A DNA stretch of 64,000 bases from the NCBI GenBank assembly GCA_050948865.1, contig JBMNEQ010000004.1, positions 62,477-126,476 of the forward strand, read 5' to 3'. This DNA comes from Bacilli bacterium. GTDB lineage: Bacteria > Bacillota_I > Bacilli_A > RF39 > UBA660. The notes under the pieces were generated by a model, which ran no database searches, had not been told where the DNA came from, and worked only from the letters and a program-made list of their open reading frames with translations. Shown here one piece after another: positions 22,273 through 23,482 of this stretch (the first letter of the stretch is position 1; every line of letters begins with the position of its first letter). The position numbers and the translations under genes are program-made.

Positions 22273-23322
22273 ATGAAAAAACAAGGTTTTACTTTAATAG
22301 AATTACTTGCAGTAATAACTATATTAGGAATAATTTTAGCTATAGCTGTTCCAAATATTGTAGGTTTAATTGAAAAAGCTACAAGAGAGGCCTTTTTAGT
22401 TGATGCTAAAAATGTTTTAAGAGCAGTAGATTATTATCTACTTGATAAAGAAGAAGCCTCTTTATTAAACGATTTAGATGTAAATTCTTTAGAAAATACT
22501 TTAAATATTGGTAGTTCTAACTATAGTAGTATAAAAATATCATTTGATCGACATTTAAATCCTTTTATAAAGTTAGTTGGTAAAAATAAATGGGAAGGGT
22601 TAATGGCTTGTGGAACTTTTACTAATTTAAAAATAGGTTCTAATAAGGATTGTGATGTTCCCACTTTTCCAACAAAACTTCCTGGTGGACAGTTATGTGG
22701 TAGTGTATTTTATGATGGAAGAGATGGTAATAAATATAAAACAGTTCAAATAGGAGAACAGTGTTGGTTTGGGGAAAATCTAAGGTATACGGGTAGTGGT
22801 TGTTTAGTTAATTCCATAGATGATTGGAAGAATGAATCTCCTTATGGTGCATGTCTGATGCATATTGAAGAAAAGGGAGCTTTGAATGGGGTTGTTCCTG
22901 ATTGGGCTAAAAATAAGGAAGTAACATATCAATGGGGAGCAGCAATGAATGGTAAATTAAATCCTCAAACTGTAGAAGATCGACAAGGTTTATGTCCTAA
23001 AGGGTGGCACTTACCTACTGATGCAGAATGGGGGACGTTAATTGATGGGCTAAGTGGTTCAGCTGGTGTTAAATTAAAAAGTACTCCACCGGATTGGGAT
23101 GGAGAAGAGCAAGATAATTCGGGGTTTAATGCTCGTCCTATTGGTTATCGCTATACGTCGGGGGATCTTTTGTTCGTGGGGTTTTACGCAGGTTGGTGGT
23201 CGTCCTCTTCTGGTGAGGATGATAATGCATGGAGTCGCACCGTCCAATCAAGTACTTCTGGTGTTTTTCACAAAACGTCTCCTCAGGCTTACGGGTACTC
23301 GATTCGATGCGTCTTAGACTAA
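22273..23322 (+). CDS. type IV prepilin-like protein fused to a Fib_succ_major (TIGR02145-like) domain, paralog 2
   Basis: Identical prepilin leader and N-terminal ~110 aa to paralog 1. Same domain motifs (RDGNKYKTVQIGEQCWFGENL, CPKGWHLPTDAEW, WWSSSS, RCVLD). Tandem duplicate including the promoter and RBS. Confidence 0.8.
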   Translation: MKKQGFTLIELLAVITILGIILAIAVPNIVGLIEKATREAFLVDAKNVLRAVDYYLLDKEEASLLNDLDVNSLENTLNIGSSNYSSIKISFDRHLNPFIKLVGKNKWEGLMACGTFTNLKIGSNKDCDVPTFPTKLPGGQLCGSVFYDGRDGNKYKTVQIGEQCWFGENLRYTGSGCLVNSIDDWKNESPYGACLMHIEEKGALNGVVPDWAKNKEVTYQWGAAMNGKLNPQTVEDRQGLCPKGWHLPTDAEWGTLIDGLSGSAGVKLKSTPPDWDGEEQDNSGFNARPIGYRYTSGDLLFVGFYAGWWSSSSGEDDNAWSRTVQSSTSGVFHKTSPQAYGYSIRCVLD

Positions 23323-23482
23323 ATTAGGCCCTGTATAATTAACTGTGTAAAAGTCAAGGGTGTTATGAGATTTAAAACAATTTACACAATTAATTTGATA
23401 AGGTCTTTTTTGAATTATCCTTTAGTTGTTTAATTGGTAAAACTTTGATATAATTTTAATAGGATAACATAGAGGTGATATC

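Follow-up and report, generated by a model that had tools for sequence, protein, structure and literature searches.

Two tandem type IV pilin genes, here referred to as paralog 1 and paralog 2, were analyzed in a stretch of 64,000 nucleotides (64 kb; hereafter the window) from a Bacilli bacterium (GTDB lineage Bacillota_I, Bacilli_A, RF39, UBA660; GenBank assembly GCA_050948865.1, contig JBMNEQ010000004.1, positions 62,477 to 126,476 of the forward strand). The last 63 codons of both genes form tails rich in guanine and cytosine (GC), and these tails are very probably products of a diversity-generating retroelement (DGR), the template of which was identified elsewhere in the same genome. Both tails probably represent orphaned variable regions (VRs) today.

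DGRs diversify their targets by means of a reverse transcriptase (RT) that copies a transcribed template repeat (TR) and misincorporates nucleotides opposite template adenines, after which the cDNA overwrites a homologous VR. The VR is recognized via its GC-rich 3' end and a hairpin located just downstream of it. As a consequence of this mechanism, template codons of the Asn type (AAY) are converted into random codons, and adenine-free scaffold codons are copied faithfully.

The GC-rich tails and a homologous template repeat

Paralog 1 (positions 20973..22109, + strand) encodes a protein of 378 amino acids and paralog 2 (22273..23322, + strand) one of 349 amino acids. Both combine a type IV prepilin N-terminus (MKKQG↓FTLIE in paralog 1) with a FISUMP (Fib_succ_major) domain featuring a C-type-lectin fold. 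The tail of paralog 2, which is the subject of this finding, occupies positions 23131..23319 (+ strand) and has a GC content of 49.7%, and the corresponding tail of paralog 1 (21918..22106, + strand) has a GC content of 56.6%. Non-tail parts of both genes show 31–33% GC and the whole window 25.7%; within its 64 kb, the two tails are the only stretches exceeding approximately 44% GC. GC at third codon positions amounts to 0.44–0.46 in the tails as compared with 0.14–0.15 in the rest of the genes. The tails align with each other codon for codon and without a gap, but 44 of the 63 codons and 32 of the 63 residues are different, substitutions of all types being represented. By contrast, the 5' parts of the two genes show 94% identity in the first 300 nt, upstream sequence included, and 89% in a stretch of 832 nt; values of 90–100% are maintained along approximately 700 nt, with divergence thereafter. 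A degenerate pattern search and sensitive blastn detected no third cassette copy within the window beyond the two tails.

These results are in line with the original prediction, made from the nucleotide sequence, that the final 63 codons of paralog 2 are GC-rich, that they can be aligned codon for codon with the tail of paralog 1 despite differences at most codons and of all base types, and that the 5' parts are conserved. Two details needed correction. The region had been placed at 23090–23335, whereas both the composition and the homology change at 23131, approximately 40 nt further downstream than the proposed start. Moreover, a shared ending GAC TAA ATT followed by CAG or AAG had been proposed; paralog 1 indeed continues with CAG, but paralog 2 with AGG and not AAG.

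The window locus is also represented in the JGI contig Ga0534105_00077 (787,845 bp). Locus L015 of this contig corresponds to window positions 12240–33322 and shows 2 mismatches in 21,083 nt (99.99% identity), neither of which is located inside a tail; the contig was therefore considered to originate from the same organism. In total, approximately 127 kb of the 788 kb (about 16%) were read. At a distance of about 411 kb from the window locus (contig positions approximately 124.6–126.0 kb vs. 537.3–538.3 kb for paralog 2), locus L003 of this contig harbors a target gene, P0005, beside rplQ, followed by a MutS_I-like gene, avd, an RT-7-like RNA, a TR and an RVT_1 reverse transcriptase gene. The TR (TR3, L003:12243-12433) is a 191-nt repeat of P0005's own tail, and the reverse transcriptase gene, located 18 nt downstream, encodes the DGR-diagnostic motif IGNYTSQ as well as the motif YVDD. 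A template repeat beside a DGR-type RT is thus present in the same genome, both being located outside the window. The VR of P0005 (L003:10898-11088) differs from TR3 at 17 of 37 adenines as compared with 4 of 154 other bases. Judged by sequence and gene order, the L003 element is a canonical DGR of the CLec2 class with avd and MutS-like accessories. A search for cassette copies lacking the 5' pilin part had been suggested along with the original prediction; one such copy, which is promoterless, was found, and it is TR3.

TR3 contains 38 adenines, none of them at a third codon position, and 14 AAY codons. Both window tails align with TR3 without gaps over exactly its 63 codons, the tail of paralog 1 being coextensive with L003:12243-12431. 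When paralog 1 and paralog 2 were compared with each other, differences were observed at 28 of the 38 TR-adenine sites (74%) vs. 49 of 153 other sites (32%), corresponding to an odds ratio of 5.9 (p = 4.8e-6). Mismatches to TR3 affect 19/38 adenine sites and 37–38 of 151–153 other sites (25%) in paralog 1, and 22/38 adenine sites and 32–33 of 151–153 other sites (22%) in paralog 2. Within the AAY codons of the template, the first two positions were changed in 14 of 28 cases in paralog 1 and in 18 of 28 cases in paralog 2, as compared with 2 of 14 and 3 of 14 third positions, respectively. Furthermore, the tails are located in the C-terminal part of a C-type-lectin fold, as is expected for VRs of this kind.

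Regarding base composition, the TRs of L003 and of two related elements of the same layout, L008 and L009, as well as the VR and post-VR element of L003, show 48–56% GC, and the RT genes of all three loci as well as avd and the MutS-like gene of L003 show 18–24% GC. Since the DGR protein genes are host-like in GC, the GC-rich tails reflect the composition of the template and not foreign DNA. Horizontal transfer was therefore rejected as the cause of the tail composition, and the tails can no longer be described as compositionally foreign, as had been suggested. The accompanying view of a variable module on a conserved pilin scaffold is retained, the tail being a dedicated VR-type module.

The adenine-poor composition also has consequences for the reading frames. 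An alternative-frame open reading frame (ORF) of 72 amino acids (23099..23317, + strand), for which there is no evidence of being a gene, extends over the tail of paralog 2. Stops per frame number 0, 1 and 3 in the 189-nt tail vs. 0, 6 and 7 in the 189 nt before it. The ORF is open because the tract is adenine-poor and every stop codon contains A, so that its earlier designation as spurious was correct. In the P0005 VR, two 1-nt deletions at template-adenine positions cause the product to enter the alternative frame (...GGRPLLVMALMLGVARVFG); this frameshifted relative thus reads the same frame by accident, and its product ends in ...GGRPLLV.... An antisense ORF of 57 amino acids (23074–23247, − strand) over the VR is likewise a by-product of the adenine-poor tract, as the antisense strand is T-poor and hence stop-poor.

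Further features of the retroelement were evaluated at L003 and the two related loci. An alignment of the window tails to the TRs of L008 and L009 was out of register, as these TRs differ in length, and its figures were disregarded. Between avd and TR, a structured conserved region was found at L003:12060-12212 and also at approximately 1630–1700 in L008 and 1905–1975 in L009; it yielded a weak match to RT-7 (Rfam RF03028) with 30.7 bits, which is below the gathering score (E = 6e-5). The avd gene (L003:11690-12055) is interrupted in frame by a TAG as its codon 55, the corresponding codon of the L008 and L009 orthologs specifying Tyr (NVYRANK). JGI calls two small ORFs in place of avd, and the TAG either marks a true pseudogene or stems from faulty assembly. 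The MutS-like gene is intact. L009:1046-3560 comprises a tandem duplication of the unit consisting of MutS-like gene, avd and TR, the first TR of which precedes a post-VR hairpin and not an RT. This arrangement represents either a genuine duplication or a repeat-induced assembly artefact.

Searches for additional components gave negative results. The RT, Avd and MutS-like proteins had no tblastn match in the 64 kb window, and an Rfam search of window positions 20800–23600 yielded no match. Exact-pattern scans with the shared VR core were without a match in genome contigs and viral contigs, and an RT search of genome contigs returned only RTs of approximately 50% identity from Alphaproteobacteria metagenome-assembled genomes (MAGs). 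Five metagenome contigs matching a 3' pattern specific for paralog 1 were dismissed as chance hits, as these contigs have 56–72% GC and show no similarity beyond the 19–21-mer.

Recognition elements and the paralog family

In genuine targets, a nested GC hairpin is located just 3' of the VR and is followed by a terminator hairpin. The nested hairpin reads GGC..GCCC-GTA-GGGC..GCC at L003 and at L002_g2, a further paralog of the same genome, GCC..GCAC-ATA-GTGC..GGC at L009 and GCC..GCC-GAA-GGC..GGC at L008, the pairing being preserved between these versions by compensatory changes. For efficient retrohoming, such a hairpin is needed in the Bordetella phage BPP-1, the sole element tested in this respect (PMC3240598).

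Neither window gene possesses the combination of intact 3' end and hairpin expected for a current target. Downstream of paralog 1, a degenerate remnant of the post-VR target-recognition element (22110..22165, + strand) aligns with the post-VR sequences of L003, L002_g2 and L007, a 3.1 kb metagenome contig of another assembly. This sequence, ATTCAGCAAGCCCTTAGGGAGAAGCC..., shares homology with the element that follows the VR in genuine targets and comprises a hairpin remnant at 22114–22135 and the left arm of the terminator at 22154–22165, the right arm of which is missing. Two of the seven hairpin pairs are broken, and the nested fold is not predicted (z = +0.85). In paralog 2, the post-VR hairpin and terminator of approximately 120 nt, which are present in L002_g2 and L007, are deleted, and the gene runs straight into the shared flank AGGCCCTGTAT...; the deletion junction (23323..23350, + strand) was placed from alignments, with the break between 23325 and 23326. 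Moreover, the GC-rich VR end of paralog 2 is mutated from GCGTCCGGGAC to GCGTCTTAGAC. Both window genes also carry a 1-nt deletion leading to an early TAA (in paralog 1, GACTTAAAT to GACTAAAT), whereas relatives read through the post-VR element and end in ...RCVRDLNSASP.

An AT-rich inverted repeat (23337..23395, + strand), in which 23337–23351 pairs with 23381–23395 and which is followed by a T run at 23407–23412, probably serves paralog 2 as its terminator today; this assignment is weakly supported, its fold being no better than shuffled sequence (z = −0.21). In addition, a 22-nt stretch at 22166–22190 (GACCTTATCAAGTTAATTTTACAA) follows the remnant of paralog 1 and has an inverted copy with 91% identity at 23385–23412, so that an inverted repeat flanks paralog 2 on both sides. 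This flank motif is also present after L002_g1, and by its sequence the stretch resembles one half of a terminator hairpin rich in AT.

At least 11 FISUMP paralogs are encoded on contig Ga0534105_00077. The VRs of paralog 2 and L002_g2 differ at none of the 38 adenine sites and at 16 of 153 other sites; among these differences, L002_g2 agrees with TR3 at 10 sites and paralog 2 at 4. Since all adenine sites are shared, no adenine mutagenesis has taken place in either copy since their separation. Near the 5' end, the two genes show 67–80% identity, and a single difference was found in the 120 nt at 23113–23232, which correspond to the upstream edge and the first 102 nt of the VR. The 5' half of contig L007 shows 100% identity to P0005, and its 3' half together with the flank shows 100% identity to L002_g2. 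As it represents either the L002_g2 allele of a near-clonal strain or a chimera created during assembly, L007 was not counted as independent evidence of VR stability. As suggested by these sequence mosaics, recombination among paralogs appears to be a real secondary process that would move whole segments, including VRs, between loci. Comparison of assemblies, which are near-clonal, showed identical VRs for paralog 1 in three, for paralog 2 in two and for L002_g2 in two of them.

Other members of the family were in different states of decay. In P0008 (L002:10001-11092), the tail is changed at 9 of 38 adenine sites and keeps most of the AAY codons, and 17 of its 23 non-adenine changes (among 153 sites) are GC-to-AT; the post-VR hairpin is mutated and the remainder of the element is deleted. 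By this pattern, the P0008 tail looks like a nearly unmutated template copy that is now decaying. Three further FISUMP paralogs, L001_g1, L001_g2 and L002_g0 (L001:10001-12184; L002:8919-9911), have tails of 28–37% GC in which the scaffold residues WW...RC are kept. Possibly, VR erosion ends in AT-rich tails such as these; alternatively, a DGR may never have targeted them.

Evaluation of the possible explanations

Taken as a whole, the explanation that the tails were written by a DGR and are now frozen is favored with moderate confidence. In this explanation, the tails are VRs of a CLec2/Legionella-type DGR and form the C-terminal part of a FISUMP lectin fold on a type IV pilin stalk. Writing by a DGR accounts for their extent of 63 codons, their GC-rich and adenine-poor composition and their codon-for-codon alignment, and also for the differences at all four bases and the stop-free alternative frame. 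The last writing of the window copies would have used an earlier TR version or a different one, and the copies would have drifted since, mostly at third positions and mostly towards AT. Non-adenine mismatches to TR3 were found at 23 of 63 third positions in paralog 1 and 17 of 63 in paralog 2, and GC-to-AT changes outnumber AT-to-GC changes by 19 to 5 in paralog 2 and by 18 to 12 in paralog 1. Rewriting would no longer occur, the recognition element of paralog 2 being lost, that of paralog 1 broken and avd interrupted. Recombination among the pilin-FISUMP paralogs, of which there are at least 11, would additionally have shifted segments, VRs included.

Several observations weigh against this explanation. 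Neither tail shows the adenine-only mismatches to TR3, the only TR found, that characterize a current DGR target: adenine sites are significantly enriched, yet mismatches at other bases greatly exceed the 'minor exceptions' that the survey of DGRs (PMC5758913) tolerates, in contrast to those of the P0005 VR. The enrichment at template adenines could partly be due to diversifying selection on ligand-contacting residues. Identical VRs constitute weak evidence of inactivity in assemblies that diverge by approximately 1e-4, and a second TR and RT matching the tails could exist, since the part of the 788 kb contig that was read amounts to about 127 kb. Paralog 1 is ambiguous in this respect: its 18 vs. 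12 directions of change also fit copying from a different GC-rich template, and it keeps most of the post-VR element. Finally, the avd stop and the frameshifts in the P0005 VR could be consensus errors of the metagenome.

It is conceivable, albeit unlikely, that the tails are still actively written as remote targets from a second template outside the DNA read, either another TR used by the same RT or a second DGR. In chromosomal DGRs, distances of more than 100 kb between RT and remote target are on record (PMC5758913), and about 16% of the contig was inspected. Paralogs 1 and 2 share seven non-adenine states unlike TR3, e.g., GGT GAG vs. GAT GAT in TR3, as would suit a separate template; their third-position GC is still 0.44–0.46, and many of the non-adenine changes in paralog 1 are AT to GC. 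Such activity is difficult to reconcile with paralog 2, which is without a post-VR element, has a mutated GC-rich 3' end and equals L002_g2 at 38 of 38 adenine sites while 16 other differences have accumulated. VRs identical across assemblies, the interruption of the only avd found and a 64 kb window devoid of RT, avd or TR also argue against it.

The original prediction favored cassette exchange or gene conversion, in which the tails would have diverged mainly through exchange among paralogs or with silent cassettes in the manner of pilE/pilS. As an account of how the differences arose, this is very unlikely: exchange moves VRs between loci and leaves the origin of their differences unexplained, and the sole 5'-less cassette found is a TR abutting an RT. 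Moreover, the adenine-specific footprint, in which AAY positions 1–2 change and position 3 is spared, points to adenine-mutagenic retrohoming from a donor copied by the DGR RT as the writing mechanism, and the GC-rich composition matches the TR, the tails of L001_g1, L001_g2 and L002_g0 having 28–37% GC. Part of the proposal nevertheless stands, since the family of at least 11 paralogs is mosaic, as indicated by the near-identity of paralog 2 and L002_g2 over 23113–23232 despite 67–80% identity near the 5' end, and by L007, which joins a P0005 5' half to an L002_g2 3' half if it is not an assembly chimera. The prediction had also expected further cassette copies and tails that vary among related strains; further copies do exist, yet the tails are identical in all available assemblies. 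Highly improbable is a history in which the domain, acquired horizontally or unusual in composition, diverged between the paralogs in the ordinary way, under positive selection and without any dedicated mechanism. The stability of the tails between assemblies and the 32% non-adenine divergence between them would fit such a history, but the compositional boundary matches to the codon a TR that adjoins a DGR-type RT in the same genome, a DGR post-VR remnant lies 3' of paralog 1, and the enrichment at adenine sites is significant (p = 5e-6).

The two processes might also be combined in a two-tier system, in which the DGR writes tips into one 'master' target by reverse transcription and recombination distributes, stores and re-assorts them among the paralogs. 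This is considered rather unlikely. If it were true, the genome would constitute an archive of DGR-made lectin tips, and the VRs taken for fossils would serve as a functional library and not represent debris. DGR mutagenesis would then be combined with pilS-like cassette shuffling, including the pair of genes before the Tad-like operon described below.

Pilin context and comparison with known systems

Further characterization of both paralogs showed matches of the N-terminus to PF07963 and TIGR02532 and of the C-terminal domain to PF09603 and TIGR02145, the latter spanning the C-terminal 190–220 residues. The cleavage/methylation motif G↓FxxxE of type IV pilins is present (MKKQG↓FTLIELLAVI...), and a helix is predicted at residues 8–58 in the structure model. 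Foldseek searches against the PDB returned non-significant matches only. Translation of the two genes starts at ATG codons (20973 and 22273), with an AAAGGAGG ribosome-binding site upstream of either one; GTGs proposed by the ORF finder are not real starts. The protein encoded by paralog 1 is identical to NCBI MGI6330081.1 and JGI P0242, and both proteins recur on contig Ga0534105_00077 without any residue being changed.

A Tad-like pilus assembly operon (23483..28038, + strand) begins 160 nt 3' of paralog 2. Based on Pfam families of the genes called in L015, it comprises two TadE-like genes, a CpaE/ParA-like ATPase, a T2SSE ATPase and two T2SSF genes. The G↓FTLIE signal of the pilins is of the Com/T4a type and not of the Flp type. 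Four genes upstream of the pilin pair, a 423-amino-acid lipoprotein-like serpin (PF00079) is encoded at 18390–19661; the host is a small, low-GC, spore-forming member of the Bacilli.

Within the CLec2 class, DGRs have DUF1566/Fib_succ_major targets and avd and MutS-like accessories, LdtA of Legionella pneumophila being the exemplar (Wu et al. 2018, PMC5758913). The system described here resembles the LdtA DGR in the location of the VR in the C-terminal part of a Fib_succ_major/DUF1566-type C-type-lectin fold, in the presence of TR, DGR-type RT (IGNYTSQ, YVDD), avd and MutS-like gene in the same genome, in the adenine-specific mismatches between proximal VR and TR and in the GC-rich hairpin 3' of the VR. 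It differs from it in that the window proteins are anchored by a type IV prepilin N-terminus instead of a lipoprotein signal, and in that the window copies are located 411 kb from the RT, deviate from the adenine-only pattern and have a broken or deleted 3' recognition element. Likewise, TvpA of Treponema denticola (2y3c) belongs to a DGR that is located on the chromosome and has several paralogous targets at a great distance from the RT. However, the remote VRs of Treponema are adenine-only relative to their TR according to the survey cited above (PMC5758913) and those of the window are not; moreover, TvpA shares 13% sequence identity and is a lipoprotein and not a pilin fusion.

Regarding pilus-borne variable domains, type V pilus tip proteins of gut Bacteroides (bioRxiv 10.1101/2024.11.15.621889) and Mfa2-Fib_succ_major fusions (PMC4159848) also present a DGR-variable lectin fold on a pilus subunit, with a C-terminal Fib_succ_major domain. 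In contrast to these type V pili, the window genes encode type IV pilins with a class III signal peptide beside a Tad-like operon in a low-GC Bacilli MAG. In the monoderm Streptococcus sanguinis, PilB and PilC (PMC8179133) similarly consist of an N-terminal pilin module and a grafted C-terminal adhesin or lectin module; the graft in the window proteins, which are putative pilus subunits, is instead a DGR-type C-type-lectin fold with a retroelement-written tip. The pilE/pilS system of Neisseria shares with the present one a variable 3' part of a pilin gene, a promoterless donor copy elsewhere and many paralogous copies, but relies on DNA cassettes in RecA-dependent gene conversion and not on an RNA template and an adenine-error RT, and on a cassette library and not on a single template. 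Multiple silent 3' cassettes of the pilS type were not observed: no further one was found in the window, and the only 5'-less copy found is the TR.

The finding shows that a VR can be recognized from sequence alone even when its template and RT are hundreds of kilobases away, and it explains a striking compositional anomaly without horizontal transfer. Furthermore, type IV pilin fusions of a small, low-GC, spore-forming Bacilli lineage, encoded beside a Tad-like operon, are added to the DGR targets. The genome offers a graded series of VRs, one in register with the template, others with eroded hairpins and others with AT-rich tails, which is useful for studying how DGRs gain targets, how these become orphaned and disappear, and whether paralog recombination redistributes the diversity made by the retroelement. 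Overall, the tails are explained by a known system, and the case is modestly novel with respect to the pilin fusion in low-GC Bacilli, the large paralog family and the within-genome series of VR erosion.

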